Source: a virus. Taken from it: a stretch of 60,398 nt of DNA. Shown here one piece after another: positions 1 to 60,398 of the stretch; position 1 is the stretch's first letter, and the number at the start of each line of letters is the position of its first letter. Below the pieces are notes generated by a model. That model was not told the origin of the DNA and searched no databases. It saw only the letters and a list, made by a program, of their open reading frames with translations. Position numbers and translations under genes: made by a program. The DNA lies in UHGV virus genome UHGV-1361177; one strand, given 5' to 3'.

Positions 1-571
1 ACCACCAACCATTGCTATCATGGTTCCAGCCAACAGTGTATGAATTACTTTCTGCAAGGGTCCAATCTGGTCTTCCATATCCATCAATTCTGCTGTTGTT
101 AAGATTATACGATTTTTCGCATACGGCACCACCATTAGCGACAACTTCTGCACCGCTGCTGGTATTACCTTCAATCGTATAGACTTTTCCACCGGAAACT
201 TTTATTACAATTCCGGTGTGGCATATTCTTGACGAATTGCGGAAAAAAATCTGATCTCCTGGTTTGGGATCAGATTTGTGGTATTGGCCCTTATTCTTAA
301 AATATTGTGCAGACGTAGGAGTATAAGCGCTAAAGCCACCACACAACAATTGTTTAGCTTTTACTGAACCAAAGGCTTGTACAAAACACCAGTCTACGAA
401 CATATCACACCACGCTTGACCTTGAAGTGACGGATAAATATCCCTGGCATACTTTGTGTAATTATTGCTACCTGCATTGCCGGTTTTACTATCTAAAATA
501 TCATTTGACATTTTTTCAAGATATCCAAGTTCTGCTTTTGCAATTCCTATTAATCTGTCAACTACGCTCAT
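1..571 (-). CDS. N-terminal part of a CHAP-domain peptidoglycan hydrolase (endolysin-like). The ORF runs off the window start and continues in frame at 60190..60398.
   Basis: ATG at 569-571 preceded by AAAGGAGA. Translation MSVVDRLIGIAKAELGYLEK...GQAWCDMFVDWCF...CHTGIV shows the CHAP Cys/His motifs. The frame ends ...YTVGWNHDSNGWW with no stop before position 1. Confidence 0.6.
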   Translation of the reverse strand, partial: MSVVDRLIGIAKAELGYLEKMSNDILDSKTGNAGSNNYTKYARDIYPSLQGQAWCDMFVDWCFVQAFGSVKAKQLLCGGFSAYTPTSAQYFKNKGQYHKSDPKPGDQIFFRNSSRICHTGIVIKVSGGKVYTIEGNTSSGAEVVANGGAVCEKSYNLNNSRIDGYGRPDWTLAESNSYTVGWNHDSNGWW

Positions 572-585
572 TCATAGATTCTCCT

Positions 586-930
586 TTAATCCGGCCCTTC
601 AGGAAGACCAGCTTGCCTTAGCAAGTTAATTCTCTGCTTCATTTCATAGACAGCGCATTCCTCATTAGATTCAACATTACCGTTATCAGAGCTATCTTTG
701 TATTTATCCAATACTGGATGTTCGATATACTTAGCTCTTGACTTTTTGCCTGCCAAATTGCGTTCAATTGCAACCCCAACGGCAGATAACCCATAAGATC
801 CCCATTGCATCCATGCTTCTACATCTCTATGTTTACGTTCAAGCATATTAGCCTCAGCATATGGCTGTAAATCAGTCGGGCATGATTCGTCTATTTCTGA
901 TACTGTCAATCCATAACCTTTAGACACCAT
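586..930 (-). CDS. T segment of the tail assembly chaperone, probably expressed only as a G-T fusion by -1 frameshifting
   Basis: The open frame extends upstream of its first ATG to ~1059 and overlaps the 3' end of 972..1388 in the -1 frame. It lies immediately downstream of the G-like ORF. Confidence 0.5.
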   Translation of the reverse strand: MVSKGYGLTVSEIDESCPTDLQPYAEANMLERKHRDVEAWMQWGSYGLSAVGVAIERNLAGKKSRAKYIEHPVLDKYKDSSDNGNVESNEECAVYEMKQRINLLRQAGLPEGPD

Positions 931-971
931 TAACCAATACGGCCGTATTTCTTTACAATATGTATGCCAGG

Positions 972-1388
972 TTAATTCTTTTTGCTCTCTGCCGTTTCCG
1001 AAACTGCCTGAGACGTTTTCTGCTTTTTGGCTTTTGCCATTCTGGATAAAAAACCATTCTCAAGCAACTCCTTCTGTAAAATAGAAAACAAGGTATTCAT
1101 GTCTCCATCTTCACCATCAAAATAATCATCCAGAAGCGCATATACTTTTTCCAGACATGCGTCTTTCTGACTTTTGTTTTCCGGTTCATAACCAAACTCT
1201 TCTTTATGAAATTTTTGCAGACCAACTAAAAGCATCTCTGGTAAGAAAAGTAAAAGTTTTTCCACTGACTCCATATCTCCTGAAATATTATCCATATTCA
1301 TCAGATCACGAATAATACCAGACTTGATTGTAGCCTCATAGCCATACTTGATTTTTAATTCTCTATCTCCAAACTTAATTGTAGTCAT
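972..1388 (-). CDS. tail assembly chaperone (gpG-like)
   Basis: 138 aa with an acidic C-terminus, sited between the major tail gene and the T segment. The N-terminus MTTIKFGDRELKIKYGYEATIK is typical of siphophage chaperones. A slippery site sits near the 3' end. Confidence 0.5.
   Translation of the reverse strand: MTTIKFGDRELKIKYGYEATIKSGIIRDLMNMDNISGDMESVEKLLLFLPEMLLVGLQKFHKEEFGYEPENKSQKDACLEKVYALLDDYFDGEDGDMNTLFSILQKELLENGFLSRMAKAKKQKTSQAVSETAESKKN
1047..1053 (-). promoter_or_regulatory. candidate -1 programmed ribosomal frameshift site (T TTT TTA heptamer)
   Basis: The coding strand reads GGT TTT TTA TCC in the G frame. The -1 frame continues ATC CAG AAT GGC... into the T ORF. Confidence 0.45.
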
Positions 1389-1456
1389 TTTTATCCCTTT
1401 CCCCTATGGTATACATAGGAAAGGGGGCACTCCGTAGAATGCCCCACTTATCTTAC

Positions 1457-1957
1457 TTATGATTTTTTAGTTAATGTAATGCTTGTCGGATAACCATTTT
1501 CATCCTCAACTACTGCAACGTCATAATCATCCTCAATCCACTTCGGAACCGTCTGAACAGATACCGTTGCAGTACCAGTCAGATGATCATCGGATGCTTC
1601 GCCAGGTGCGAAGGACTCCTGACCGATAAATCCACAGATTCCCTCTGAACCCTTACCGTCTGTTCCATACAGAATGATAAAGTCCAGTTTCTTGCCCTCG
1701 TTGGTCACCATCTCATCTTTGTACTTTTTCTCAAAAGCGCCCTCAACTTCCATAGAACCAGCAGAACGTCTTCCCATTTCCTGAGTCTCTACAAGATCCT
1801 CCAGTGTAGATGTGTCTACCATATTCTGAGATCCGAATGGAGACGGAATGCTCTTCGCTCTCAGCAAAAGCTTATAAGTACCAGCCCAATACTCGCCTGT
1901 AGTTGCAGAAGTGCTGGTTTCTTTGTAAGCAATCCTTGATTTTAAGCCTGTAGCCAT
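1457..1957 (-). CDS. major tail protein (putative)
   Basis: 166 aa ORF directly upstream of the G/GT chaperone pair and downstream of connector genes. Size and position match siphovirus major tail proteins. Confidence 0.5.
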   Translation of the reverse strand: MATGLKSRIAYKETSTSATTGEYWAGTYKLLLRAKSIPSPFGSQNMVDTSTLEDLVETQEMGRRSAGSMEVEGAFEKKYKDEMVTNEGKKLDFIILYGTDGKGSEGICGFIGQESFAPGEASDDHLTGTATVSVQTVPKWIEDDYDVAVVEDENGYPTSITLTKKS

Positions 1958-2007
1958 ATTTTTACCTCCTGAATTTTCATAAAAAAATAAGAGCCATAAG
2001 CCCTTTA

Positions 2008-2972: not shown

Positions 2973-3397
2973 TACTTCACCACTTTTTGTAATAAGAACA
3001 AATCTACGGTCAAACCCTCGTCAGCTACACCGCGGACCGTGTAATCCGCAGTCAGCGGGTCAACGCCACCATCAGCATCATATCCCACAGCTGACTTTTT
3101 CCAAACCATGTCCCCGGCAGTCAGTGATAGATAACCTTTGTCTGTCACAATCTGGACATAAGTGCTGCTATCATCAATACCAAATTCTTTAACAAGAACC
3201 TCACTAAGTTTGTTGCTGATGTTTGCATAAAACTCTTGTGGTTCGGAATAACCAATTTTTTCATCAGCAATAATCGGTATCTTATTCCCATCCCCATCAA
3301 TGTAGTATTTTATGCTTCCATCTTCTTCTTTTTCATATACAATGATACGCTGTCCTTTGCGGGAACATTTCATTTTCTGCTTATTAATATCAAGCAT
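2972..3397 (-). CDS. hypothetical head-tail connector-region protein
   Basis: 141 aa ORF, translationally coupled with its neighbours. Confidence 0.3.
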   Translation of the reverse strand: MLDINKQKMKCSRKGQRIIVYEKEEDGSIKYYIDGDGNKIPIIADEKIGYSEPQEFYANISNKLSEVLVKEFGIDDSSTYVQIVTDKGYLSLTAGDMVWKKSAVGYDADGGVDPLTADYTVRGVADEGLTVDLFLLQKVVK

Positions 3398-3659
3398 CTT
3401 TTTTTACCTGCTTATAAATCTGGTTTACACCGGTACTGGCAAGCCCGCTTACGATCCCCACTGCAATAGCTGTCATAATGTCCGTTGCTGGGAAATCTGG
3501 GATAACATACATTCCAACCGCACCAAGGATGCCACCCACAGCACCAACAATTACTGGAATGTAATTATCCTTAACTCCATCTACAGTCTTTGCTCCAAGC
3601 CCAACCAAATAGCAGATAACCACAATCGCTAACGATGTTCCGACTTGTGTAATATCCAT
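3390..3659 (-). CDS. holin-like small membrane protein (Listeria A118/phi LC3-like pattern)
   Basis: 89 aa with three hydrophobic segments (SLAIVVICYLVGLGA, PVIVGAVGGILGAVGMYVI, IMTAIAVGIVSGLASTG) and a charged C-tail KQVKKDA. Confidence 0.5.
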   Translation of the reverse strand: MDITQVGTSLAIVVICYLVGLGAKTVDGVKDNYIPVIVGAVGGILGAVGMYVIPDFPATDIMTAIAVGIVSGLASTGVNQIYKQVKKDA

Positions 3660-3964: not shown

Positions 3965-4093
3965 TTCATAGCTCCTGCTGCTGTAAAAATTACACACTGC
4001 CCACCGCCACAAAAAAGTGTGCCCCTGCTATCGTTTTGTTAACCTCAACAAAATCATAACGCACAATCTTCTAAACTCCTCGATATCGAGGAG

Positions 4094-4456: not shown

Positions 4457-4464
4457 AAAACCTC

Positions 4465-4701: not shown

Positions 4702-4717
4702 GGTAATAGCCCTCCAA

Positions 4718-5824
4718 TTAATAACACTTGATTACATATGTGCTATCCATTCTTTCATAGGACGGAAGTACGATTTCAGATACAGTAGTCTTTGTCTGTA
4801 CTGGATCACTGGTAGTTGTCACTGCCACAGCTACACCAGTATTGACAATTGATACATCTGCTTCTCCACTTCCCATAAGGGTTCTTTCCTCAGGAGTTGT
4901 ACCATACCAAGTGTTTCCTAATGCACCATTAGGAATCAGTGTTGCAAATCCATCTGGATAGAATTTGGCAGCAGTGCCAGCCTCATTCTTGTACTGCTTT
5001 GAGTATACAATAATGCTTACTCCTAACTCGTTGGAGAATACTTCTTTTACACGATTGTCATTCATGAAAATGTTAGCTGTTACATTTTGTGCCAGAATAG
5101 CATTGCGGATTTTCTTATTCTGCTTCAGATAATCCATTGTCTTTCTGGAAACAATCATGATGGATGGACGTTCTCCAGTTTCTGCTTCTACCGCATCTAA
5201 TGCAGTAGCAACATCATCTAATGGGTCAGAATTAGTAGTATCGTCCCATTTATCAGTTGCAGTTTCAAGTGAAGCAAAATTCTTCGTAGCATATGTGTTG
5301 TTTGGATCATAGTTATATGCATAATTTACTCCATTTGCCTGAATGGAAATCTTAGGATGTCCATCGGATGGTGCTAATAGCTGCATAATCATACGTTCAG
5401 GAACAACATTAGCACCGTCAATTAAGGTATTGGCATCATCGAAGATTCTGCTCAATACTTCTGATGCATATGGATCCGTACTATCCTGAACACGCATAAT
5501 TTCCTGTTCATCCGCTTCCTTAATCAGCATTGATTCGCGAAAAAACGCCATCTCTGTTTCGGTAAGCTTAAAACCTTCACGGCTTCTAAGAGTAGACACA
5601 GCATCAAAATTTGATGGTGCCAGGGAAACCGGAAGACCTTTAGATGTCTTGATCCACTTCAGATCAAGCCCCATTTTCTTTTTTGCCGGAAATAATCCGG
5701 AACCAAGATATGCAATTTTGTTACTTGCAACTTCTGTATTTACGAGTGCAATCGCTTTAGCGCTATACGCATCTCTAATATTCATCATGTCCTCACTTTC
5801 TACCGATACGGTTAATGGTCGCAA
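4718..5824 (-). CDS. major capsid protein
   Basis: 368 aa ORF between scaffold and connector genes. Size and position match HK97-fold MCPs. Confidence 0.7.
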   Translation of the reverse strand: MRPLTVSVESEDMMNIRDAYSAKAIALVNTEVASNKIAYLGSGLFPAKKKMGLDLKWIKTSKGLPVSLAPSNFDAVSTLRSREGFKLTETEMAFFRESMLIKEADEQEIMRVQDSTDPYASEVLSRIFDDANTLIDGANVVPERMIMQLLAPSDGHPKISIQANGVNYAYNYDPNNTYATKNFASLETATDKWDDTTNSDPLDDVATALDAVEAETGERPSIMIVSRKTMDYLKQNKKIRNAILAQNVTANIFMNDNRVKEVFSNELGVSIIVYSKQYKNEAGTAAKFYPDGFATLIPNGALGNTWYGTTPEERTLMGSGEADVSIVNTGVAVAVTTTSDPVQTKTTVSEIVLPSYERMDSTYVIKCY

Positions 5825-6866: not shown

Positions 6867-7502
6867 TTAATCTTTCGTATATCTTAAAGAGCATCGACAA
6901 TTAATGATTTCCTCCGGAAAGGCATCAGCTCCCAATGACGTATCTCTTGGAAACATCATCTGCGCATCGCCAACATCGAAATGCTCAAAAATTCCTATTT
7001 TATTTTCATCAAGTCTCACATGGGTGTGTCGAACACGATTGTCTTTCATTGTACGCCATGTTTTGAACCGGTATCCATTTTTTATCATTTCTACCTGTTC
7101 GCGATAGTTTCCAACAGAATTCGCTTCATTCGCAGCCAGAAGCATTGCTCTTTCTTCTGACAAGTAATACTCACTGTCGATATTCTCCAATGTGGTATCA
7201 ACAATGGACTTTGTTACCTGCGCAGCGTATTCCGCAATATATGCCGGAGTTACTTTTACACCCATGTACTCTGTGGCAATCTGACAATATTTATCATCAA
7301 TATACTGATAACAGCTGTCTGCATTCTCATCATCTTGTACTGCCATTGCAAACAGAAGTAAAAAAGCCACTTCCATATCTTTTGCAAGTTGAATTCGGTC
7401 TTTCTTTTCCTTTTCCGATATCTCCATTTCTCCAAAATATTGCTCATAGGATAGCGGTTCAGCTATATTCAGTTCATCTATGTCTAGTCTACGACTCGCC
7501 AT
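6867..7502 (-). CDS. minor head morphogenesis protein (Mu F / SPP1 gp7 family)
   Basis: Motifs KTWRTMKDNRVRHTHVRLDENKI and INCRCSL, sited right after the portal gene. Confidence 0.75.
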   Translation of the reverse strand: MASRRLDIDELNIAEPLSYEQYFGEMEISEKEKKDRIQLAKDMEVAFLLLFAMAVQDDENADSCYQYIDDKYCQIATEYMGVKVTPAYIAEYAAQVTKSIVDTTLENIDSEYYLSEERAMLLAANEANSVGNYREQVEMIKNGYRFKTWRTMKDNRVRHTHVRLDENKIGIFEHFDVGDAQMMFPRDTSLGADAFPEEIINCRCSLRYTKD

Positions 7503-7506: not shown

Positions 7507-8979
7507 TCACTTCTCTACCTTCTGATTGCTGTTACTGATATTATTTCCATTTTGATTTTGATTGCCAATCTGAAAAGCTATTTCTTGTGCCTTACGTTCC
7601 TGCTCTTCTACATCATCAATAGTCTTCCACAAGTTATCAACATATGGCTTAGATAACAGAAATGTCTTTTCTGCATCTCCCCAAAGGCCTACTGTTTTTA
7701 TTGCAACAAGAGGATGAATGCCACATTGAAGAAGCTGTAATAGTGTCTGTGACTTGGTATACATATTGTCCTGAGGACTATGGTTAATCTGCACATCAAA
7801 ATCACGTAGAGTAAGGTTCAAACCGTTGCCTGCAACACGCAAAACGTTCAGCACTACCATTGCAAGTCTTTTCTCTGCCGACTTAACAAGCGGGTCTTTT
7901 AATTTTGCTCTGGTTTTAGAAAAGTCCCATCCATTTCTCAACTGTACAGCCCCTTGTGTATCGCCTCCGGTATTGCTCTGCTTCGTTGGAATAGCCAGAA
8001 TTGACAGCGTATTATCCCACAAATCATCTTTCGCAACCTGGCACTGTGTCTGGTTAAGCTCCTGTGTCATCACATCAACATCAGACTTATTGTCCTTATT
8101 AATGGACGTTACTACCAGTGCCCTGCTCATCTTCATTTTTTTGAACTGTTCTTCATCGACTTCGCAGTTGACAAATTTAATCCATGACTGTACAAATTGT
8201 TCAATGCCGTCCATGCGGTTTGACTGCATGTTGTTGATTGCATCCAGCATGGAAATAACCAGTTCAATATCTGAAATTCTTTCATGGTTATTTGGATACT
8301 CCACAATTGGAATACCGCCATAAGTATGCAGCTTTGATTCTACCAGATCGCTATTAACCATTTTGAAGGACATGGTATCAGAAAATGCCAGCTTGTAATA
8401 CCGACCATCCTCATCTTTCAGTTCCTGAACAACCAGAATCGGTTCTTCCGTATTCCGATTGTAAATCATGAAAGTATTCATAGGAGTAGGGGCTGTAATT
8501 CGGAATGGAACATCACCTTGCTTTGGCTGTACAGCCTTGAATGACGTTCCCGTAGCTGACTGCCACTCACCAGCCTTAATGTCCTTTTCCTGCTTGTTGG
8601 CATCTACCATGTAATCGTTCAGCTCATCAACAGCTTTGTTAATGGCTTCATCATCTTTCCGGCTGATAAACTGCACAGGTTCTCCATATGTCTGGCCCAC
8701 TTTAAACTGGACAATCTCATAGGCATGATTCTCAACGATTTTGTTTGTTATGTCCTCATTGGTAATCTTCGTTCTGTATAAAGTTGGCTGATCACCTTTA
8801 TAGTAGCGCCACAGATACCTGATTGCAATTTTATTCCCATAGAAAACACCAATGCAATCACCAATTACCTTCACAACATTCTGTGGTGTGATTTTATCGA
8901 CATCCGTATATGCTATTTTTCGTCCATAAACTCCATGAACCAGGTCTTGGAATTTCATTGTGTTTCTTGTAAAATTCAT
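7507..8979 (-). CDS. portal protein
   Basis: ~490 aa ORF downstream of the terminase. The likely start MNFTRN is preceded by AGGTGA. Confidence 0.75.
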   Translation of the reverse strand: MNFTRNTMKFQDLVHGVYGRKIAYTDVDKITPQNVVKVIGDCIGVFYGNKIAIRYLWRYYKGDQPTLYRTKITNEDITNKIVENHAYEIVQFKVGQTYGEPVQFISRKDDEAINKAVDELNDYMVDANKQEKDIKAGEWQSATGTSFKAVQPKQGDVPFRITAPTPMNTFMIYNRNTEEPILVVQELKDEDGRYYKLAFSDTMSFKMVNSDLVESKLHTYGGIPIVEYPNNHERISDIELVISMLDAINNMQSNRMDGIEQFVQSWIKFVNCEVDEEQFKKMKMSRALVVTSINKDNKSDVDVMTQELNQTQCQVAKDDLWDNTLSILAIPTKQSNTGGDTQGAVQLRNGWDFSKTRAKLKDPLVKSAEKRLAMVVLNVLRVAGNGLNLTLRDFDVQINHSPQDNMYTKSQTLLQLLQCGIHPLVAIKTVGLWGDAEKTFLLSKPYVDNLWKTIDDVEEQERKAQEIAFQIGNQNQNGNNISNSNQKVEK

Positions 8980-8987
8980 GTTTTCAC

Positions 8988-9185
8988 CTACATATAAGTA
9001 AGGCCTGAAGAACATTTTCTTTCAGGTCTCTCTTTCAGTTCAGTATCATCATTATCGGGATAATAGATAACACGCCTATAGCATTTTTTACAAATACAAA
9101 TAACTGGTGTTGATGTACGCCCGTCCCATCTGCCTACTCTTATACCGCATCTAGGACAGTACACAGTTTTAGGTTCATGCTTCAT
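8988..9185 (-). CDS. small zinc-ribbon protein
   Basis: CPRCG...CICKKC motifs in 65 aa. Its stop abuts the portal RBS. Confidence 0.4.
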   Translation of the reverse strand: MKHEPKTVYCPRCGIRVGRWDGRTSTPVICICKKCYRRVIYYPDNDDTELKERPERKCSSGLTYM

Positions 9186-9325: not shown

Positions 9326-9769
9326 TCATTTTGACTCATTGTAGGACACTTTGTCACCTAAATACTTATTCCCGTACATATTTTCAAAAACAGCCAATGC
9401 ATTGTAATAAATCCTTTTGACTTGTTTAAGCGAAATATCACCTCTAAGTCGAATGGTTTTTAAATCCTTATCCAAAATAAACTTCTGACACAGAACATCA
9501 TACATATTCGTATCTGGAATGCTTTCAATTTCTTGAACAATCTCATATCGCTTATCAATAATATTGTCAACTTCACGTTCCATATCTACAATTTTGGAAA
9601 CATATGAACTAATTTTGTCAGGATTCTTCGAGGTCTGTATTCTATCACCATTACTCTGAACAGCCGATGTGCTGTAGATAATAGACCTTAGATTTTCAAC
9701 TTCCTTTAATTTATTTTCAATCATTCGATTATATCTTACTACTAAAGATAAATACTCTCTCGTTTCCAT
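9326..9769 (-). CDS. putative HTH or sigma-70 region-4-like regulator
   Basis: 147 aa. The C-terminal LKTIRLRGDISLKQVKRIYYNALAV is HTH-like. It sits unusually between terL and the portal gene. Confidence 0.3.
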   Translation of the reverse strand: METREYLSLVVRYNRMIENKLKEVENLRSIIYSTSAVQSNGDRIQTSKNPDKISSYVSKIVDMEREVDNIIDKRYEIVQEIESIPDTNMYDVLCQKFILDKDLKTIRLRGDISLKQVKRIYYNALAVFENMYGNKYLGDKVSYNESK

Positions 9770-11547
9770 TATCCAAACCTCCTAAACGGATTTATTACTG
9801 CTTCAACCTTTGCTGTCCTGTTCCCTTGCGTAATCCTAAGCGCAAAGTTTGAGAATACATCTGGAACATCGTCTAATTGCTTCTTTCCAGATACAGAATA
9901 TTGCTTAAGCAACGTCATCATCACACCATATGGTTCTTTCGGTGTATACTTTGACGCATCTTTGAATATCACATGTTGTAATATCCAGTTTGAGCACTGG
10001 AAGATACGTGCTTCTTTGTTAGTTTCAGTAGGGACATCAGTGATATTACAAATCCATCCCTTTGCTTCTACTCGCTTATTGACTTCCATTGCTACACGGT
10101 CACCACCAGCATTTCTCTCAAATTCGCACTCAATAACCTCGTTATTGACAAGCATATTTGCCGCATTTTCATACTGCATTTCATAATCTGCTGTATTGTC
10201 GCACACGGCATCCACACAATAATAATCTTCACCAAATTTTTGGAATACTGGCATAACAAAATAATCAGTTCCCTTACCCTTGGTATCGCACTGAGCTGTG
10301 ACAATCTCAGGTACACCATGTGGCAGATTCAAATATCGCCTGATTTTATCTTCTGGGAATAACAGGCCCTCACGTTCAATAGGCTCCTGCTTATACAGAC
10401 ATTTGTATGAAATATCATCCATCAATAATTGTTGGTCTGCAAAGAACTCCTCGTCAAAGCCTGAGAATTCATAATCAAAATTGCTCTTTCCAGTAACCGG
10501 ATCAACATCAGGAACAGCAATTACCTTTACCCTCGGATTACCTTCATACATTTTTTGGATACGCCCTATGACATCCTGGACACTCCATCTGGTTGCAATG
10601 TGTATTTCCTTACAATTCTTACCATCAGTATCTTTGATTTTTCTTTGGCGTGCATCTACGGAATACTTACTCCACAACTTTTCAAGTATAGCCGGATTCA
10701 ATGCTTCCTCGATACCGCCAATCATATCATCAACCAGCAGAAACTTAGAAGCACGGACTTTACCCGCATTTTTGCTTCCTACTGATGTGCACTGCACAGA
10801 TGGGAACGGCTTATATTTTCCTACGTTGAACTGTTCTGTCTTTGCATTTGTACTTGTCACATACAAATCAGGGAAAATCTCATTCCATGCATATTCGTCT
10901 GAATTAGTAACTATATCATATATACCGTCATAGTACATTCTGGTAATATCACCGCTATGGGAATAAAACAAATTGAAGTCTTTCGGATACCAGCCAATTA
11001 CTGCAGCATTGAAGAATTTTTCGATGGTCGTTTTCCCAGCGCCCGGAATAAGGCTAATGCACAAAATGTCGTACTTGTCATCAATCATACCCTGTAAAGC
11101 ATCCACAAGACCGATTTTAAGTAGCTGTTTGCGCCTAGGCATATAAAACCGCTCTTTCGGTTCTCTTTTGTGCTCTATATACCTGAAAAAGCTGTCAATC
11201 ACTTTATGTTGAGCTTCCAAAAGCAAAACCGAATAAAAACAGTCTATCAGCTCCAATATGGTTTTATTGGTTGTCTTATGCTCAAATGCATATTTTTCCA
11301 ATTCCCATATAGCACCACCTGTCTGTTCTAAACAATAACGCTCCGTCAGCTCCTTTGATCGCTTTGCAAGTTGTAATCCATAATAAATATCATTTTCACC
11401 ATTAATAGCCACTGCACAAGCCTTTGCGTATGCCTGAACACCCCGCCAATCGACACCGTTAGCCTGTATGTAATTTTCATATTCCCTGATTGTTTGCTTC
11501 AAATTTTCGGAAGCCAAAAGGAAAGCACCCCCACTTTCAAAAAGCAA
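9769..11547 (-). CDS. terL: terminase large subunit
   Basis: Walker A LIPGAGKTT, a Walker B-like motif FLLVDDMIGG, a HIATRW segment and a C-terminal nuclease-like Asp-rich region. The annotated start is TTG with a ~126 aa N-terminal extension; an internal MPRRKQLLK start is possible. Confidence 0.8.
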   Translation of the reverse strand: MLFESGGAFLLASENLKQTIREYENYIQANGVDWRGVQAYAKACAVAINGENDIYYGLQLAKRSKELTERYCLEQTGGAIWELEKYAFEHKTTNKTILELIDCFYSVLLLEAQHKVIDSFFRYIEHKREPKERFYMPRRKQLLKIGLVDALQGMIDDKYDILCISLIPGAGKTTIEKFFNAAVIGWYPKDFNLFYSHSGDITRMYYDGIYDIVTNSDEYAWNEIFPDLYVTSTNAKTEQFNVGKYKPFPSVQCTSVGSKNAGKVRASKFLLVDDMIGGIEEALNPAILEKLWSKYSVDARQRKIKDTDGKNCKEIHIATRWSVQDVIGRIQKMYEGNPRVKVIAVPDVDPVTGKSNFDYEFSGFDEEFFADQQLLMDDISYKCLYKQEPIEREGLLFPEDKIRRYLNLPHGVPEIVTAQCDTKGKGTDYFVMPVFQKFGEDYYCVDAVCDNTADYEMQYENAANMLVNNEVIECEFERNAGGDRVAMEVNKRVEAKGWICNITDVPTETNKEARIFQCSNWILQHVIFKDASKYTPKEPYGVMMTLLKQYSVSGKKQLDDVPDVFSNFALRITQGNRTAKVEAVINPFRRFG

Positions 11548-12550: not shown

Positions 12551-12623
12551 TCGGAACACTTGGAATCGAACCAAGGCACATGGCTTATAAGGCCACCGCT
12601 CTAACCGGCTGAGCTATGTTCCG
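12551..12623 (-). tRNA. tRNA-Ile (anticodon UAU, hand-folded)
   Basis: Cloverleaf: acceptor CGGAACA/TGTTCCG, D-arm GCTC-AGCCGGTTA-GAGC, anticodon stem GTGGC/GCCAT with loop CTTATAA, T-arm CTTGG-TTCGATT-CCAAG. 73 nt. Confidence 0.55.
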
Positions 12624-12921
12624 TTTTTGATGCGGTGCCGATGTTAGGCAGTGTATATCACGATATAAGCTTTGCGCAAAGCCATTATCTATATACCCAG
12701 CTCTCAACATCAGCATTGTCAATCTCTCTGAGACGGTCCGCATACGCTCAGTTCAGTTGGGAGCTACCCAACAGTATATCCTTTATAAACCACGCTTTTT
12801 GTACTTCCAGGATATAATCTGTGAGTCCCGGACTAGCTCATATCACCGGCATGTCTTTTCTCTACTCACAGACAAGTTATTCACAGCATCAACATGAGCT
12901 TGTTGTGCTGTATCATGGAAA

Positions 12922-13011
12922 TGGGGAAGAGAGGAATTGAACCTCCAATGTTTACCGCGTGGGAACTGATTTACAGTCAGCCGCAACACCGCCAATCGTT
13001 GCCGCTTCCCC
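12922..13011 (-). tRNA. tRNA-Tyr (anticodon GUA, class II with long variable arm)
   Basis: Acceptor GGGGAAG/CTTCCCC, anticodon loop CTGTAAA, long variable arm, T-arm GGAGG-TTCAATT-CCTCT. 90 nt. Confidence 0.55.
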
Positions 13012-13288
13012 AAACTGCATATGCCCCGTGAAAGCATTCTAGGTGATATGCAAGCACCTGACGGCCTTGTACGTGACCGCCGAACGGATTTTAACGTCTT
13101 TACTGACCTTAACCTTATTGCGAGGAGAAGGATTCTGCTGCCTATGACAGTTGCGTTGGCGCACAGGTTGATTTTCACAAATCCCACCGGACCTTGTGAC
13201 GGTCCTTTAATCAGCTTTCCGCTAGTGGGTCAGGGAGGATACCTATATGAAAACACATACAGATATTGGGGCCCTTGCCATACCCCAG

Positions 13289-13361
13289 CTAGGCTACCGG
13301 GATTCGAACCCGGGCATCCAGGAGTCAAAGTCCTGTGCCTTAACCGCTTGGCTATAGCCCA
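13289..13361 (-). tRNA. tRNA-Gln (anticodon UUG)
   Basis: TGGGCTATAGCCAAGCGGTTAAGGCACAGGACTTTGACTCCTGGATGCCCGGGTTCGAATCCCGGTAGCCTAG. U1-A72 as in bacterial tRNA-Gln; T-loop TTCGAAT. Confidence 0.7.
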
Positions 13362-50030: not shown

Positions 50031-50072
50031 GTAAAGGTCAAATCCTTCGCTCCACGCCAAATACAGCGCCGC

Positions 50073-51890
50073 TTATTTGCGGCGCTTGTAACACTCAGCC
50101 GGAAGGTCTTTCGACCATGGCATAAGTGGTTCTAACTCTTTTTCGTCTATACTTCCATCGGCACGAACAACCTGTGTCAGCTCTGTCAACAAATGTTTCA
50201 TGTAATAGTAGACATTCAGGCCATTCGCCCGGGCGGTCTCCGTAACACTGTAAATGATTGCACTGGCATCAGCTCCTCGTACCGTATTGATGGTCATCCA
50301 GTTTTTACGGCCAATCGTGAAAGTTCTCAGCGCACGTTCGCTGGCCAGGTTATCAATCGGTACTTCTCCATCTGACAGGAATACTTTCAGATATGCTTCC
50401 TGATTCAGGCAATAGTTGATGCCTTTGGCGGTTTCACTCTTTGGAAGCACCGACCGGTCCGCCTGTATCTTTCGGAGCCAGGCAAAGAATTCTTCAACCA
50501 GAGGCTTGATGGAAGCCTGCCGCTCATTTAAGCGTTCTTCTGGAGTCAGTTCCTTTAAAGCTCCTTCCAGGTCATAAATGGCACCAATTCGTACCAGTGC
50601 TTTATACGCAACAGACGCCTCGACCGCTTCTGGATTACTTTTTCCAATTGCCTTAATCGCATTTGCGAAGTGGCGCCTTGCGTGAGCCATGCAATTCGCA
50701 TTCTTCACACCAGCAAGATCCCGCTCCAGCTTATGATACTGTTCCAGGCCATCAGTCACAAGAACACCGTCAAAGTCCTTATAATACGCTTTCGGATGAT
50801 CGCTGTGTCGTGTCTTCTGGTATTCATACACAATGATTGGCGGCACAGGACTTAACTCTCCAGTGATGTGAACCCACATATAGCTTTTACTGCCTGCAGG
50901 TCTGCCGTCATGAATTACATCTACAGGTGTTTCATCACTCTGATTTACATGTGCTTCCAGCTGACGTTTCCTCATGAGATCACACACTGGCAATAAATAG
51001 CGTTCAGCTGTCCACACCGTCCAGTTCGACATCGTCTGTTTGGACAGATTCAGGCCGTTTGCCTGGAAGTCTCTGGAAATGCGGTCAAGCGGATTGCTGT
51101 TTACATACTTGGCATTGATGATTGCGGCTTCAAGAGAAGGAGTAGCAATGCTTCCCCTGAACATCGTTTCCGGGTGATCACCACGAAGAAATTCATCCTG
51201 ATGCGCACCATCTGTTCCAACATACACTTTTATGATGTGTTTTTCAGCAGTCCATTTGGCCGGTTCGAAACGAAGCTGCCAGAAAATCTCATCCGGCATA
51301 CTTTTCCAGTTTTCTTCACCGAAAGCCTCATTCAGTTCCTGTTCCGGTATATCATGAAGGATTACTTCCTGCGGAAAATCCTTCAGGTCTTCTTCACGCT
51401 GGCCTTTTTTCTTAGGCTTTCGCGGTACCTTTCTGGATGAATCAATGACCTCTTCCACAGTCGGTTCCTTGGCTGTTCCATCATAATTCGCTTCTGCCTC
51501 ATTAAAAAAAGAAAGCTGGCCTGCGATATCATCCAGTTTTTCCGTATGGCGGCCGAAGCGCTGCTGATTTGCCAGCCGGATCTGCTCTACGAGGTTTTCA
51601 TAGTTGTGTTCCAGTCGGTCAAGCCGGTCCTGCATCTGGTAGATGACATCGTCCTTAGTTTTATGATCCATCTTGTTCAGTTCATCTGGAGTGAATTTTT
51701 TGCACATGATATCCGCCTTTCTTACTAACGGTAGTATAGCAGAAATCTGTGACAAATGCGAATCAGCCTTCAGGCCGAGTTCGTCATTTTTTCCTGCCAC
51801 GAAAGTCATCAGAATTCGTATGTCAGCCTTTGGAAATATAGGGTTTTCAAGGTGCAATTGCATCGTTCCTGCCTGATAGCAGACGAACAA
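50073..51890 (-). CDS. tnpC: IS66-family transposase TnpC
   Basis: CMAHARRHF motif; ~600 aa. Confidence 0.85.
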   Translation of the reverse strand: MFVCYQAGTMQLHLENPIFPKADIRILMTFVAGKNDELGLKADSHLSQISAILPLVRKADIMCKKFTPDELNKMDHKTKDDVIYQMQDRLDRLEHNYENLVEQIRLANQQRFGRHTEKLDDIAGQLSFFNEAEANYDGTAKEPTVEEVIDSSRKVPRKPKKKGQREEDLKDFPQEVILHDIPEQELNEAFGEENWKSMPDEIFWQLRFEPAKWTAEKHIIKVYVGTDGAHQDEFLRGDHPETMFRGSIATPSLEAAIINAKYVNSNPLDRISRDFQANGLNLSKQTMSNWTVWTAERYLLPVCDLMRKRQLEAHVNQSDETPVDVIHDGRPAGSKSYMWVHITGELSPVPPIIVYEYQKTRHSDHPKAYYKDFDGVLVTDGLEQYHKLERDLAGVKNANCMAHARRHFANAIKAIGKSNPEAVEASVAYKALVRIGAIYDLEGALKELTPEERLNERQASIKPLVEEFFAWLRKIQADRSVLPKSETAKGINYCLNQEAYLKVFLSDGEVPIDNLASERALRTFTIGRKNWMTINTVRGADASAIIYSVTETARANGLNVYYYMKHLLTELTQVVRADGSIDEKELEPLMPWSKDLPAECYKRRK

Positions 51891-51981
51891 ATTGTTCTGA
51901 TCCGGTCATCCATTGTAAACGATAGCAGTTCTTTTCAGTACCAAAACAGAAAATATATTTTCTCTGTTTTGTACAAACGTT

Positions 51982-52338
51982 TCAATAGATATTTTTCGGA
52001 TCGACATCTTTGATTTTGGGATCCAGGGGATTTAAACCCATCATAAGATACTTGTACTGCTCTTCGGTAAGATCTGCGGCTTCCTGTATGTTTCTTGGCC
52101 AGGATAACCGTCCTGCTTCAAAGCGTTTATATAGAAGCAGGAATCCTGTTCCCATCCACAAGAGCCCTTTGCACCGATCGGAACGCTTTCCGCAAAACAA
52201 AAAGAGCGTTCCCTTCTCAAATGGATTTTGACCATACTTATCTCCTATAATCGTTGCCAGTCCATCAATGCCCTTTCTCAGATCAACCGTGCCGCAGGCA
52301 AGAACAACACGGCGAATACCAGCAGCATCTTCAAGCAT
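51982..52338 (-). CDS. tnpB: IS66 accessory protein TnpB (Orf2)
   Basis: VDLRKGIDGLATII...LFLFCGKRSDRCKGLLWMGTGFLLLYKRFEAGRLSWP. Confidence 0.85.
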   Translation of the reverse strand: MLEDAAGIRRVVLACGTVDLRKGIDGLATIIGDKYGQNPFEKGTLFLFCGKRSDRCKGLLWMGTGFLLLYKRFEAGRLSWPRNIQEAADLTEEQYKYLMMGLNPLDPKIKDVDPKNIY

Positions 52339-52756
52339 GGGACACCTCCTGAATAATCCGGCTCAGGAGCGCATCCGAGATTTCATTGGAAATATCAATC
52401 TGTAATGTTGCCGTCCGAATCGTTGCAACAGGTTTGTCGGAAACCATGTATGTATTTGTTTCCGCAGAAGTGTGGCATGGAATTTCAACAAAAGACAGTT
52501 CTGTTTTCTCGGTCACGGCAGGAACGGAAGAGTTTCCCTTCATTTCTTCATACGCCTGTTTCCGGAACCGTCGCTGCCAGTGATAATAGCTTTGTTCGCA
52601 GATGCCATTCTCATCCATCCAGCTTTTGGCTGACTGGCCTGCTGGTCTTTGCCCACAGGCCTGAATGATCTTCTTCCAGTACTCTGCACGGACTTCATGA
52701 GTACACTGATCCATAGTGTTTAGTCCTCCCTTGAAAAAATCTATTGTTTTTCTCAA
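52331..52756 (-). CDS. tnpA: IS66 accessory protein TnpA (Orf1)
   Basis: Position and size; SYYHWQRRFRK motif. Confidence 0.6.
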   Translation of the reverse strand: MRKTIDFFKGGLNTMDQCTHEVRAEYWKKIIQACGQRPAGQSAKSWMDENGICEQSYYHWQRRFRKQAYEEMKGNSSVPAVTEKTELSFVEIPCHTSAETNTYMVSDKPVATIRTATLQIDISNEISDALLSRIIQEVSHA

Positions 52757-52805
52757 GTATGCACTAAAAATGGATTTAGTGAAAGGCGCGTGGTTTGACC
52801 TTTAC

Positions 52806-55658: not shown

Positions 55659-58600
55659 TTAAGTGAAGCTAAATCCATTTCTGCTGATTCGGCTGTTAAT
55701 AGCACTGACAAGCTCACGCCCGTCAAGACTAATTGACGTATCCTTGTCAGCAGTTTCCCTGGTATTTTCTGCAATCTGGGACAGATATGGAGCTAAGACA
55801 TCTGCAACAGCTTCTCTTACTCCGGCAGTAATGCCAGCTACAATCTGCTCATTATTTGCTACTGCGGTTTTGCCATTGGAGAACTGACCAACCATCTCAT
55901 TATGGTTTGCAAAGAACAGACCATCTTCTGGGAACCCACCTACAGAGTATTTAGGAATGTCAACATGAGCTATTGCTCTGAAAGATACATGTGAAATGGT
56001 ATCTTCTTGCATTTCCTTTGCTGCCTCATTGTAATCGCTGATCAGGTCATTCATAGACTCTGCAATTCTGGACAATCCAGTATTGAACAGGTCAATCATG
56101 CCATTGACTAAATCTCCAACTTCTTTCACAATGCCTTTAAATCCAGAATAGATACCGTCCTTCATATTGGTTCCAAATGGTTCCCATTTTTCCTTTGTGA
56201 ACCAGGTAGACACATTGTTGGTAAACCAATTGTTGATATTAGTGTTCCACTGGGTTTCAAATTCAGCCCATTTATCCAGAAGTGCAGTTTTGAAGTGATC
56301 GCCCTGTTCCTTCCACTTTTCAACGGTAAACCATGTTTTTACGTTAGTATTCCACCACGTATTAGTCTTTGTTTTCCACTGAGATACAAATTCATCCCAC
56401 TTGGCAATAAGACCTGTTTTCATTCCGTCCGTTGTAGTTTTCCATTTTTCGGTGGTAAACCACGGAGAAACATTTGCACTAAAAAATGTTGGCATTGCTG
56501 TTCCAGACCACCATACAGCAGCTTGGTTCCATGCATTCATTAACGATGTCTCAAGATTGCCAAAAATAGGATCCAGTGCCGTAGTAGTAAAACTTGACGC
56601 AAGACCAGATACAGCAGTAGTACCAATCGTGCTAAACTGCGACTCACTAAGGGTATCAGAAATAGTATTGTATACGTCAGTAGCAAACATGCTAATTGTA
56701 TCAATACCGTTACTGCTCTCAAATGGCTTAATTAAACCATCCAGCATACCTTGCCCAATCTCTTTCCATTTGGATTCAGAGAATATGTCATAAACATCAT
56801 TTATAGTACCGGAAATACCATTTTGCAGTCCTTCAATGAGATAAACACCATTCTCATCCATGACAGTAGACGGGGAATGGATACCAAGGATGTCCTTAAA
56901 TTTATCAATGACACTTTGAGCTACCGTACCAACACTCTCTTTGATATTATTCCAACCGTCTTTGATACCATTAATCAAGCCTTCCATGAGGTACCCACCC
57001 ATTTCTGCCATGACCAATGATGGGGAATGAATTTTAAATGCTGACATAAATCCATTCATAACAGGTGTATAAATATTATCAATGATCCACTGCCCTACAG
57101 ATTTTAAAGCATCTACAATACCAGCAAATAAGCCCGCAACAATGTCACCGCCAGCCGCCTGAATATAAGTGGTGAAATAAGCTTTTGTTGCATTAAATCC
57201 ATTCACAAGCACATTCCATACTTGTTGTGCAAGTGCTACTCCAAGTGATGTAAGCGCGCCTACAGCTGTCCCTAAGTATGTGAAGTATGTTGTAATCAAT
57301 CCTGAATAATTAAACGTTGTAACAATGTTATATAATGCGTTCCAGAGGTTTGTTCCGACTTGTGCCCAGTCAACAGAAGCAAGACCGGATATTACAAAAT
57401 CAAATATACCTGTGACAATTGTATATCCAGCGTCTACCAGTCTCTGCGCAAGACCGCCCCAATCTATATTAACAAGAAAATCCATGACTCCTTCGCCAAA
57501 TGCTCCCCAATCTGTATCACTGACAAAAGCGATAAGTGTATCAAGCAATCCATTGACAAGAGAACTGAGGCTTGTAGCTGCACCTGACCAGCTAAAAGCT
57601 GATGCAAATGTATTTAAACTAAGCGCAAGACTACTTCCGAAATTAGTCCAATCAAATGTTGTCGCAGCATTTTCTAATACCGTAAATGCAGCATTTAATC
57701 CATTTGCAAGCATTTGTCCAATTTCATTCCATTGAATAGAATTAACAATTCCATTGAGACCGTCACCAATGAATTTTCCAATAGAGTCCCAATGCGTAAC
57801 ATCCAAAAGAGTATTTGCGAAGTCTACAGCTGTATTAATTCCCTGACCAATGGTTGTACCGATTGAAGTTGCCAGTCCTTCAGTTTCAACAAAGCCATTA
57901 ATAAAGGTTCCAATACTGGATGCAATCTTTCTGGCAGACTCCTGGATTCCATCCCAAGGGATAGAGTCCAGGCCATTCTTAAGCCAAGTGCCAACAGCAG
58001 AACCAAGTTCTGTAAAGTCGGCCGCTTCCCACATGGACTTGATTTTATCAGACCATTCCTTGTATTTGCTGTCAATCTCATCTGTCTCAAACATATCAGC
58101 GGCACTTGCACCACCACCGCTGCCACCAGATCCGCCACTCTTGCTTTGGTCAACAATGTTCAGCTCATCAATTCCAAGCGTATGCGTTTTAAGGTCATCA
58201 GCAGCCTTACTAGCCCCGCCAAGGCTCTTAGCATAGTCTTGTGTCTGCTTCTTGGCTTTAATCCATGTACCATGTCCTGTAAGCGCAGAAAACAGCTGAT
58301 TAACAGCATTTGCCGCATTAATACACATCTGAATGATAGTATTTAACGCCGGAGCCAGTGCGTTAAGGATTGGCGCTCCTGCCGCCGCTACAGAGTTTTT
58401 CAGCTGATTTGTGGAATTCATCAGCAATGACATACTGGCATTGGTTTCGCTGCTGTACTTGACCAAATTTTGCATACCGTCAACAAAAGCTTTTTGCAAC
58501 TTATTGATTAATGCAAATAAGGTCCTCACTCCTACTGCATATCTAAGCATGGTTCCTAGATTTTTTAGCAATGAATTATGAGAGCCTTTACTTGCCCCTG

Positions 58601-60125
58601 TAAGTCCAGAGAACGCTTTAATAAGCTTACTTTTAAGTGCAGAAGCTAATGAAAGTATTGGTTTTTTAGCTGCCTTTAATGGTGCAGTTAAACCAGTTGA
58701 TATGGCTTTCTTTGCTACACCCGCTGCTGCTCTAGCCGCTGTGCCAATAGATGGCATTTTTCTGACAGCATCAGAAACAGCACCTTTAGCTGAACTTGCA
58801 AGCCCTTTAAAGATATTACCATTTGCCAAGTCTCTAAAAGACTGAGATATCATGTCTTTCATGTTTTGCAACTGGCCAGATAAACTGCTAGTATTCGGCC
58901 CGGCAATTGCCGCAGGTTGAGAAGATACTTTTGCAGCTTCCTCAGCTGCTTGACGTGCAGTTTCACGCATAGCATCTAATTGTGCTTTCAGACTTTCAAT
59001 CTGGTTCTCATACTTAACAACACTGGCAATAGCATGTTCATATGATTTACCATCCGTATCTCCTGAAAGTTCGATTTCCTGCTGTTTGAGTTTTGCATTT
59101 TCCAAGCTATTGGTCAAAGATTTTATCTTTGCCTCTATTTCTTTTTCACTGCCTGACATGGTGAAACTTTTACCAAGTTCCGCATATTTCTCTCTGATTT
59201 CCTGGGATTTTTCAGAAATACTTTTGCTCAAATTTGACAGTTGATCCTTGATTTCTTGACTTGTCTCAGCAGAATCTTGAGCCATTTCAGGGTTATTTAA
59301 GGCCTGACCTGCCTGCGCACCATACTCACTTACAGCCTGCGCCCAATCTCTAATCTGTGCAGCTGACTCCCCAAATGTCGCAGCCATAGCATCTGCGTTA
59401 TACTGCATATCAGAAACAGCTACTTTTACAGCGTCTCGGGCTTCAGAAGCGCTTATTTCAATGTTATCTCCAAAATATGACGATATATCATCATTATCAA
59501 ACATATCATCAAGTTTTTCTGATGATGCACCATTAATTGTGCCAGTAAACACATTAGGATTAGGCCCTGTGCTTGCTGCCTGTTTCTCAGTCACTTTCGC
59601 AGCTTCATCAGACGCTAAACGTGCAGTTTCACGCATGTTATCCAGCTGTGCGGTAAGAGATTCAATCTGATTCTCATACTTTACAACGCTTGCAACAGTA
59701 TTCTCATAGGTCTTGCCATCTGTATTTCCAGAAGCCTCTAATTCCTGCTGTTTTAACCGTGCATTCGCCAAAGCATTGGTTAAAGAATCCATTTTTTTCT
59801 GGATTTGCTTTTCTGATCCAGACATGGTAAATCCTTTACCAACTTCCGCATACTGCTTTCTAATTTCTTCTAATGATTTAGAAACATTCTTTGCAAGCGC
59901 CGACGTTTGATCCTTAATTTGCTTGTTAATGGAATCAAGGTTTTTACCGCTATCTTGGGAAGCCGTAGAAAAACTCTTTCTAAAGTCAGATAGGGTAGAA
60001 TTTTTTTTTAACGCAGAAATACCTTCTGCCACAAGCCCTAACTTTTTTATAAGCTCATCAAGGCTTTTACTTGCTTCGTCAGCTGTAGTTTTAACTGATA
60101 TTTCCAGAGAATCTACTTCTGCCAT
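55659..60125 (-). CDS. tail tape measure protein
   Basis: 1488 aa with an N-terminal coiled coil, an internal ~95-aa duplication, a GSGGSGGG linker and a long hydrophobic/Gly-rich core. Lies directly upstream of the tail genes. Confidence 0.8.
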   Translation of the reverse strand: MAEVDSLEISVKTTADEASKSLDELIKKLGLVAEGISALKKNSTLSDFRKSFSTASQDSGKNLDSINKQIKDQTSALAKNVSKSLEEIRKQYAEVGKGFTMSGSEKQIQKKMDSLTNALANARLKQQELEASGNTDGKTYENTVASVVKYENQIESLTAQLDNMRETARLASDEAAKVTEKQAASTGPNPNVFTGTINGASSEKLDDMFDNDDISSYFGDNIEISASEARDAVKVAVSDMQYNADAMAATFGESAAQIRDWAQAVSEYGAQAGQALNNPEMAQDSAETSQEIKDQLSNLSKSISEKSQEIREKYAELGKSFTMSGSEKEIEAKIKSLTNSLENAKLKQQEIELSGDTDGKSYEHAIASVVKYENQIESLKAQLDAMRETARQAAEEAAKVSSQPAAIAGPNTSSLSGQLQNMKDMISQSFRDLANGNIFKGLASSAKGAVSDAVRKMPSIGTAARAAAGVAKKAISTGLTAPLKAAKKPILSLASALKSKLIKAFSGLTGASKGSHNSLLKNLGTMLRYAVGVRTLFALINKLQKAFVDGMQNLVKYSSETNASMSLLMNSTNQLKNSVAAAGAPILNALAPALNTIIQMCINAANAVNQLFSALTGHGTWIKAKKQTQDYAKSLGGASKAADDLKTHTLGIDELNIVDQSKSGGSGGSGGGASAADMFETDEIDSKYKEWSDKIKSMWEAADFTELGSAVGTWLKNGLDSIPWDGIQESARKIASSIGTFINGFVETEGLATSIGTTIGQGINTAVDFANTLLDVTHWDSIGKFIGDGLNGIVNSIQWNEIGQMLANGLNAAFTVLENAATTFDWTNFGSSLALSLNTFASAFSWSGAATSLSSLVNGLLDTLIAFVSDTDWGAFGEGVMDFLVNIDWGGLAQRLVDAGYTIVTGIFDFVISGLASVDWAQVGTNLWNALYNIVTTFNYSGLITTYFTYLGTAVGALTSLGVALAQQVWNVLVNGFNATKAYFTTYIQAAGGDIVAGLFAGIVDALKSVGQWIIDNIYTPVMNGFMSAFKIHSPSLVMAEMGGYLMEGLINGIKDGWNNIKESVGTVAQSVIDKFKDILGIHSPSTVMDENGVYLIEGLQNGISGTINDVYDIFSESKWKEIGQGMLDGLIKPFESSNGIDTISMFATDVYNTISDTLSESQFSTIGTTAVSGLASSFTTTALDPIFGNLETSLMNAWNQAAVWWSGTAMPTFFSANVSPWFTTEKWKTTTDGMKTGLIAKWDEFVSQWKTKTNTWWNTNVKTWFTVEKWKEQGDHFKTALLDKWAEFETQWNTNINNWFTNNVSTWFTKEKWEPFGTNMKDGIYSGFKGIVKEVGDLVNGMIDLFNTGLSRIAESMNDLISDYNEAAKEMQEDTISHVSFRAIAHVDIPKYSVGGFPEDGLFFANHNEMVGQFSNGKTAVANNEQIVAGITAGVREAVADVLAPYLSQIAENTRETADKDTSISLDGRELVSAINSRISRNGFSFT

Positions 60126-60145
60126 TTTGCACCTCTTTTCTGTAA

Positions 60146-60183
60146 AACAAAAAAAGGGAGATAAGTGATTAAACCTATCTCCC
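60146..60183 (-). terminator. rho-independent terminator after the lysin gene, immediately before the TMP RBS
   Basis: AGGGAGATA ggtttaatcactt ATCTCCCT followed by TTTTTTTG on the minus strand, 6 nt after the lysin stop. Confidence 0.5.
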
Positions 60184-60189
60184 TAAAAC

Positions 60190-60398
60190 TTAAAAATTTC
60201 CCACATCCTGTTTGCCATCTGAATTTGTCAAGTACAATGCACACTCATATGGATGTCCTGATCTAGGCTCAAAGTAATACCAACTATCGCCAATCTCTTG
60301 CCAGCCAGTTACTGCATATCCATCTTTGTTGAAATAATACTTATGATGGTTGATAACTTTCCAACAATTTTTGCAATATGTTGATTTCGTATCTGCAT
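60190..60398 (-). CDS. C-terminal cell-wall-binding (choline-binding-type YG) repeat region of the lysin begun at 571..1
   Basis: The frame is open from the window end: ADTKSTYCKNCWKVINHHKYYFNKDGYAVTGWQEIGDSWYYFEPRSGHPYECALY...VGNF*. The junction codon t+at gives Tyr, yielding GWNHDSNGWWY, a canonical repeat. Confidence 0.55.
   Translation of the reverse strand, partial: ADTKSTYCKNCWKVINHHKYYFNKDGYAVTGWQEIGDSWYYFEPRSGHPYECALYLTNSDGKQDVGNF

Follow-up and report, generated by a model that had tools for sequence, protein, structure and literature searches.

How the two ends of an assembled viral sequence relate to each other is a question raised directly by the virus genome UHGV-1361177. The whole stretch analysed here (the window, 60,398 nucleotides, nt) breaks off at position 1 inside a minus-strand open reading frame (ORF) coding for a predicted endolysin, and an open frame without a start of its own occupies the opposite end. 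A sequence-only reading had taken this to mean that the ends join in frame inside one gene and that the window is a complete circular or circularly permuted phage genome. Our analysis makes it very probable that the window covers, exactly once, the whole circular map of a siphovirus-like temperate phage of gut Lachnospiraceae, the record being opened at an arbitrary point inside the endolysin gene. This conclusion is carried by the reading frame and homology of the joined protein, by the adjacency of the ends in other assemblies, and by the gene order shared with a circular relative.

The endolysin gene across the window ends

Preceded by an AAAGGAG ribosome-binding site, the endolysin ORF opens with the minus-strand ATG at 571-569. 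Its translation breaks off at ...GWNHDSNGWW, where the frame reaches position 1 after 190 codons and one further base. The same frame resumes in the last 209 nt of the window (60398-60190, minus strand), just as the sequence-only reading had described. Codon 191 is composed of base 1 (T on the minus strand) and bases 60398-60397 (AT), which gives TAT and places a tyrosine, Tyr191, at the join. Past the join the lysin frame reads ADTKSTYCKNCWKVINHHKYYFNKDGYAVTGWQEIGDSWYYFEPRSGHPYECALYLTNSDGKQDVGNF and is closed by a TAA stop at 60192-60190. The joined product, previously put at about 259 amino acids (aa), is exactly 259 aa long. In the window the gene is recorded in two parts:

1..571, minus strand: 5' part of the endolysin gene (codons 1-190 and the first base of codon 191), covering the CHAP domain and the start of repeat 1
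60190..60398, minus strand: 3' part of the endolysin gene (codon 191 from its second base, then codons 192-259 and TAA), covering the end of repeat 1 and repeats 2 and 3

The last 209 nt contain no in-frame ATG, and the only in-frame alternative starts there are two TTG codons and one GTG codon, situated 15, 13 and 4 codons before the stop. Base counts give a stop frequency of about 0.073 per codon for the minus strand, and by our own arithmetic an open stretch of 68 codons in the required frame has a chance of about 0.006. Homology excludes a coincidental open frame across the ends, because a protein identical at 256 of 259 positions is known, other homologues are of full length, Tyr191 is conserved and a 300-nt segment around the junction aligns without gaps.

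A search of the joined lysin against 5.8 billion proteins returned 7,613 matches. Among the 120 best of these, query coverage is 98-100% and lengths fall within 256-266 aa, with two exceptions. The closest public protein (P0001) is the one with 256 identical positions, and it aligns with 0 gaps. Named homologues with 68-74% identity come from Lachnospiraceae (Hungatella hathewayi, Lacrimispora indolis and Enterocloster lavalensis), which points to gut Lachnospiraceae as the probable host. Across 49 aligned homologues no variation is seen at the CHAP catalytic residues (C55, H118 and E134) or at G181, W182, D185, G188 and W189 just ahead of the join. W190, Y191 (the junction codon) and A192 are kept in at least 90% of the same 49 sequences.

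The joined product had been expected to combine a CHAP domain with a cell-wall-binding region. A domain search with the full 259 aa found both, all calls lying above the Pfam cut-offs: CHAP (PF05257) at residues 51-136 (E = 4.8e-10; 40.2 bits, cut-off 26), Choline_bind_3 (PF19127) at residues 203-239 (E = 1.1e-11; 44.9 bits, cut-off 27) and Choline_bind_1 (PF01473) at residues 221-234 (28.2 bits, cut-off 20.5). Three endolysin profiles of the PHROG collection cross residue 191, namely phrog_7854 (173-234), phrog_6745 (60-238) and phrog_31359 (122-234).

The repeat that spans the join needs a more careful wording than it was given. It had been called a textbook choline-binding-type repeat, and this label was dropped in favour of "degenerate first repeat", as Pfam makes no call on it in the full lysin; the isolated 39-aa junction segment gives nothing in Pfam even at E <= 10. 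That the repeat itself is real is supported both by sequence and by a structural model. The choline-binding modules of LytA, Cpl-1 and CbpF align with the lysin from residues 175-182, that is, ahead of the join. The AlphaFold model of the joined lysin (mean pLDDT 86) has a continuous fold through the join and three consecutive beta-hairpins at residues 181-192 (strands 181-185 and 188-192), 202-213 and 222-233; the join sits in the second strand of the first hairpin, at a pLDDT of about 85. Fold matches of the model include LytA, Cpl-1, CbpF and the CROP repeats of TcdA, as well as the CHAP lysins PlyPy and Ly7917. By these indications the join-spanning element is a degenerate but genuine first repeat, and the joined product is a predicted endolysin with a CHAP domain and three cell-wall-binding repeats.

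The two-module layout, the invariant Cys55/His118/Glu134 and the hairpin repeats, matching by both sequence and fold, are shared with lysins of the LytA/Cpl-1 and PlyPy/Ly7917 types. Unlike other modular choline-binding-type lysins, the window lysin has only three repeats, the first of them degenerate. Its presumed host also differs, being a clostridium of the Lachnospiraceae, where such repeats need not bind choline, and its gene lies within the tail operon rather than in a lysis cassette at a terminal position.

Adjacency of the ends in other assemblies

If the ends are neighbours, the sequence across them should occur uninterrupted elsewhere. An exact 40-mer made of the last 20 and the first 20 bases of the window was found at internal positions in four public contigs: 3300045988_060590 (52,208 base pairs, bp) and 3300020019_000011 of IMG/VR, and the metagenome contigs OHAN01000232.1 (58,697 bp) and OIZF01000952.1. 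A 300-nt junction segment (150 nt from each end) aligned end to end at 14 loci with 0 gaps and 83-99.7% identity. These 14 loci include pairs located on the same contig (L001 with L012, L002 with L013), and OHAN01000232.1 may be the parent of IMG/VR 060590, their BLAST statistics being identical; the independent assemblies among the junction loci were counted as at least nine. Single BLAST alignments run through the join, from position 60004 to 60398 and on from 1 to 5302, at 96-99% identity.

The neighbouring genes tell the same. Six contigs encoding P0001 have one order: a 166-aa tail gene, a 138-aa chaperone, a 114-aa gene, the 259-aa lysin and a 1365-1374-aa tape measure. The window has these genes too, with the first three at 1957-586 and the tape measure at 60125-55659, split by the window ends:

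1457..1957, minus strand: 166-aa gene, probable major tail protein (by position only; kept in relatives)
972..1388, minus strand: tail assembly chaperone, 138 aa (phrog_183, 4.5e-07; the same neighbour in all relatives)
586..930, minus strand: 114-aa gene next to the lysin on its upstream side, probably another gene of chaperone type (a conserved neighbour in the six contigs)
60155..60184, minus strand: terminator-like hairpin of 12 pairs with a T run, found by a consensus scan between the lysin stop and the tape-measure start
55659..60125, minus strand: probable tape-measure gene, 1488 aa (by position and size; directly downstream of the lysin)

PHROG scans covered nearly all called ORFs and Pfam scans selected ORFs; neither the 166-aa nor the 114-aa gene gave a family match in Pfam. 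The tape-measure function of 55659..60125 can be inferred from synteny, and relatives of this gene are present in IMG/VR. Contig 3300045988_060590 has its tape-measure and lysin genes at a central position.

Judging by this gene order, the structural operon runs on across the window ends, and this continuity is evidence independent of the lysin reading frame. The 40-mer inside four contigs, the alignments through the join and the shared neighbour genes bear out the proposal that the window ends join in real DNA. At the level of sequence, base 60398 is shown to precede base 1 directly in the real molecule, no bases being lost or repeated between them.

The circular map, packaging and competing explanations

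Adjacent ends make a circular map; whether that map is complete depends on what it contains. About 85 of the 109 called ORFs lie on the minus strand, and the main modules are as follows:

1..60398, no strand: the whole window, very probably one full unit of a circular map (ends abut, one copy per module, collinear with Dulem virus 39)
9769..11547, minus strand: terminase large subunit (phrog_38, 2.6e-43; Terminase_6C and T7-type RNaseH nuclease domain)
7507..9015, minus strand: portal, SPP1 Gp6-like (PF05133, 2.9e-79; phrog_64)
6867..7502, minus strand: Mu F-like minor head protein (PF04233, 1e-09)
6751-6194, minus strand: scaffold-position gene (by position only)
4718..5824, minus strand: major capsid protein (phrog_29, 4.3e-61; the orthologue in relatives has Phage_cap_E)
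3390..3659, minus strand: holin of the Hol44 family (PF16079, 1.5e-25; phrog_1129), among head-tail connector genes
49011-44272, minus strand: distal tail genes (PHROG)
42489..43234: divergent Cro-like (42489-42677, minus strand) and CI-like (42890-43234, plus strand) genes (phrog_8, phrog_4, phrog_3)
22291..23640, minus strand: large serine recombinase, the integrase (Resolvase, Recombinase and Zn_ribbon_recom; phrog_95, 1.1e-109)

The connector and tail module also holds a tail completion protein and further tail genes. The switch module includes an Ant antirepressor, one of several antirepressors that PHROG detects in the window. A recombination and DNA metabolism module comprises a SbcC-like ATPase, RecT, a metallo-hydrolase and a DNA methyltransferase, while the replication and integration module comprises SSB, a DnaD-like loader, several HNH endonucleases, the serine recombinase and MazG. 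No sheath or baseplate-wedge family was matched in the PHROG and Pfam scans. With terminase, portal, capsid, chaperone and a long tape measure all present, the genome is assigned by its gene content to siphovirus-like Caudoviricetes, and the integrase, the CI/Cro-type switch and the antirepressors make up a temperate gene set.

Megablast of window positions 1-12000 against 50,697 GenBank phage records gave no match. The only deposited relative was found by a protein-level search with the terminase: Dulem virus 39 (PP511791.1), whose terminase is 79% identical. Its genome, from a lemur faeces virome, measures 59,751 bp as compared to 60,398 bp of the window and is deposited as circular; for the Dulem genomes, circularity had been called on the basis of terminally redundant MEGAHIT contigs (PMC11281440). 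Thirty-three window genes match Dulem virus 39 in one conserved circular order, which includes terminase, portal, capsid, the holin inside the connectors, tail genes, tape measure and CI/Cro, followed by the SbcC-like ATPase, RecT, hydrolase, SSB, serine integrase and nucleotide kinase. The 114-aa gene upstream of the lysin has a weak match to the gene preceding the tape measure in Dulem virus 39. Since the shared order crosses both the window join (chaperone to tape measure) and the start of the Dulem record (nucleotide kinase to terminase), the two records are circular permutations of one gene order.

The differences between the two are considerable. Most proteins of Dulem virus 39 are just 35-65% identical to those of the window. 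It has no lysin between the chaperones and the tape measure, carrying a "cell wall hydrolase" in the early region instead, and it lacks the IS66 element described below. The Dulem record begins at the terminase gene, without interrupting any gene.

Contiguous ends, a full single-copy set of modules and collinearity with a relative of similar size together uphold the claim of a complete circular phage genome. The genome would have been assembled as a circle and then written out linearly, opened between the first and second bases of lysin codon 191. This is a new uncultivated phage of a known kind, and a circular assembly linearised within a gene is routine; no long-standing question is opened or settled by it. 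The practical consequence is that the window can be used as a complete, closed phage genome and as a reference for common uncultivated temperate phages of gut Lachnospiraceae. In the linear record, gene callers will miss or truncate the endolysin and split the tail operon unless the sequence is rotated.

Several observations weigh against this picture. An assembler given a circular template cuts it at a random position, with a repeat of k-mer length left behind (CheckV paper, PMC8116208), and a criterion of the CheckV type is a direct terminal repeat of at least 20 bp. The window has no such repeat: no exact overlap of the ends of 8-399 nt was found, the 12-20-mers at either end occur only once in the window, and the ends abut exactly, with no gap or overlap. 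The usual signature of a circle is therefore missing. The repeat left by the assembler would then have been trimmed, which fits the exact abutment. Further, a 40-mer over the window-specific edge of the IS66 element had no match in IMG/VR. The join stretch is 99-99.7% identical among close relatives while the adjacent 5' region of the tape-measure gene is 79-94% identical, and a mixed-strain assembly could have closed through the shared lysin segment. Finally, any packaging type is assigned only tentatively, as the terminase had no match by sequence among solved terminases and no small terminase subunit was recognised in the window.

The last two points concern the form in which the circular map is packaged. 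By general phage biology, injected DNA would circularise, and the serine integrase would need a circle to integrate; replication would yield concatemers to be cut by the terminase. Reads from circles, concatemers or permuted virions would all assemble as a circle. Headful packaging would give circularly permuted, terminally redundant virion DNA, and we lean towards it as the most likely mode because the head module combines an SPP1-type portal with a MuF-like protein. This combination is typical of pac-type phages such as SPP1, a correlation only. As in SPP1-like pac-type siphoviruses, a Gp6-type portal gene is followed by genes for a MuF/gp7-like protein, scaffold and capsid; the terminase differs in having no detectable sequence similarity to that of SPP1. 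Its nearest cultured relatives are just 25-37% identical.

A linear virion DNA with fixed ends, either cos ends or a short exact terminal repeat, is a possible but less likely arrangement under the same circular map. The assembled circle would then derive from replicating or circularised intracellular DNA or from concatemers, and metagenomes do contain intracellular phage DNA. It would be compatible with a sequence in which neither a small terminase nor a pac site is recognised and which does not fix the packaging mode. The terminase, besides matching no solved terminase, has a nuclease domain barely above the cut-off for both Terminase_6C and the T7-type RNaseH, and T7-like phages have direct terminal repeats. 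Against fixed ends, the portal and MuF-like protein are of the kind known to us from pac phages, again as a correlation, and repeat analysis of the window detected no cos-like or repeat feature at any module boundary. The sequence-only reading had left the choice between "circular" and "circularly permuted" open, which is as far as the sequence permits, the physical ends of the virion DNA not being readable from it.

A further feature of the terminase is an N-terminal extension of about 100-120 aa that lies outside the terminase profiles and outside the distant homologues. As no separate small terminase gene was recognised, this extension might carry a DNA-recognition function.

Returning to the closure itself, a false or chimeric one would have been produced through the conserved lysin segment of two co-occurring phages, leaving a mosaic or a map that is not truly closed. 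The contrast between the near-identity of the join stretch and its more diverged tape-measure flank would allow this, and many close relatives occur in the same sample type. However, the gene order over the join is identical in every relative examined, so that closure at this point gives the true topology in any case. The gene set is complete, single-copy and collinear with a circular relative of nearly equal size. Misassembly by internal repeats is unlikely as well, because none is long enough: the longest internal repeat is 300 nt at 72% identity. We consider a chimeric closure very unlikely; at most, the window could be a strain mosaic.

Still more improbable is that the circle represents a plasmid-like episomal prophage (phage-plasmid) and not the form of the genome that is packaged. 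Circularity, regulators, antirepressors and an insertion sequence would all suit an episome. Yet partition and plasmid replication-initiator genes were absent from the PHROG results for nearly all called ORFs and from the Pfam results for selected ones, an integrase is present, and the replication genes (DnaD-like loader, SSB, RecT) are of phage type.

That the window represents part of a longer linear contig, such as a chromosomal prophage, with a merely coincidental in-frame continuation, has next to no chance of being true: temperate genes (serine integrase, CI/Cro-like) are present and related lysins occur in chromosomal prophages, but an excised prophage would end at attachment sites near the integrase and not at adjacent bases of one codon, the frame would rarely stay open by chance while the joined protein is 99% identical, gap-free, to a known 259-aa protein, the structural operon crosses the ends as it does in relatives, and PHROG scans found no bacterial genes in the window.

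Close relatives, lysis genes and variable regions

Three contigs are especially close to the window: IMGVR_UViG_3300045988_060590, OHAN01000232.1 and contig C3846 of ENA ERZ27301558 (51,392 bp). Their nucleotide identity of 96-99.5% covers most of the structural, replication and integrase regions, and all three have an intact internal lysin gene between the chaperones and the tape measure. They differ from the window in having an empty site in place of the IS66 element and other cargo between the tape measure and the distal tail genes. Near-identical contigs are already present, unannotated, in IMG/VR, ENA and Logan. When 185,579 species genomes were scanned for the integrase, the matches were all in metagenome-assembled genomes and at most 61% identical, and the scan yielded no integrated copy of the phage.

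The lysis genes do not form one cassette. The Hol44 holin lies within the connector genes in the relatives and in Dulem virus 39 likewise, and in a chromosomal prophage of Lacrimispora indolis a lysin with 74% identity occupies the usual place in an XkdX-holin-lysin arrangement. One may speculate that in this lineage each lysis gene forms a cassette of its own within the virion-assembly operon and that the lysin is a mobile self-contained module hopping between sites and phages, which we find doubtful. If it were so, the site before the tape measure could serve to attenuate transcription of tail genes or to supply a virion-associated lysin, and the stretch after the tape measure would be an active hotspot swapping cargo and insertion sequences (IS66 in the window, IS605 OrfB in a relative).

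The other features of the window referred to here are:

50031..52805, minus strand: IS66-family insertion sequence of 2775 bp with three genes (52756-52331, 52338-51982 and 51890-50073)
12551..13361, minus strand: tRNA cluster Ile(TAT), Tyr(GTA) and Gln(TTG), found by ARAGORN just upstream of the packaging genes

The IS66 element is flanked by an 8-bp target duplication, CTGGCATC, at 50023-50030 and 52806-52813, and its terminal inverted repeat is GTAAAGGTCAAA. Its transposase matches DDE_Tnp_IS66 (PF03050, 5.3e-77) together with LZ_Tnp_IS66 and the IS66 C-terminal domain; matches to phrog_688 and phrog_623 were also obtained, the latter by the middle gene. The element splits the 5' end of a 208-aa ORF6N antirepressor gene, the remainder of which is a 160-aa ORF at 49914-49432. 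Exact empty sites were found in four related loci (L012, L003, L004 and L205). By all appearances the insertion into the phage genome is recent.

The 40-mer from the left end of the IS66 element also occurs in two viral contigs, at L208 35-74 and within 422-511 of L209 (IMGVR_UViG_3300045988_148781). In the latter, two IS66 ends face each other 10 nt apart; the resulting structure of 90 nt resembles a miniature inverted-repeat derivative of IS66.

IS66 belongs to a cargo island at 49432-55542, between the tape measure and the distal tail genes, which is variable among relatives (compared with L003 15042-20300 and L004 9586-13179). The window cargo comprises T5orf172/MUG113, a Zn-ribbon membrane protein, a small RHH-like gene, ORF6N antirepressors and IS66. 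At the same place relatives carry pRha, bPH_2 and an IS605 OrfB/TnpB-like gene (IS605 OrfB in L003).

A tandem-repeat array at 49105-49248 is intergenic and lies upstream of the distal tail genes. It consists of eight tandem 12-mers (GAACCACCNNNN, minus strand) followed by about three copies of a 16-17-nt repeat, AAGAATGTAAGAATAT. 12-mers of a similar kind also occur at 25672-25706, where they code for the EPPN linker of the DnaD-like gene. The array could be a decayed coding remnant or an array of binding sites.

Another variable point relative to two relatives is located at about 17846-17848, within a region of about 17300-17850. The window has here a plus-strand 146-aa ORF (17312-17752) and a 26-aa hydrophobic ORF (17767-17847). 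Contig 060590 departs from the window at about 17848, continuing with a 247-aa ORF, which by eye we take to be DUF4417-like, and then a GC-rich non-coding stretch (L171 15795-17246); another relative has a 1.25-kb insertion at the variable point (L169 14818-16067). The divergence at about 17848 was considered as a prophage-host boundary, and this was dropped, given the DUF4417-like ORF there and the DUF4417 annotated at the matching place in Dulem virus 39.

Rfam supports the Ile and Gln tRNAs of the cluster, while the Tyr call, 92 nt long, has no Rfam confirmation at the gathering score; the Rfam scan of the window returned tRNAs only.

Four genes for HNH/AP2-type endonucleases are found at 20441-21256 (plus strand) and at 27069-28043, 28655-29194 and 36061-36393 (minus strand). 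They are dispersed through the replication and recombination region, one of them on the opposite strand and one being a short copy, and this scatter suggests homing-endonuclease traffic.

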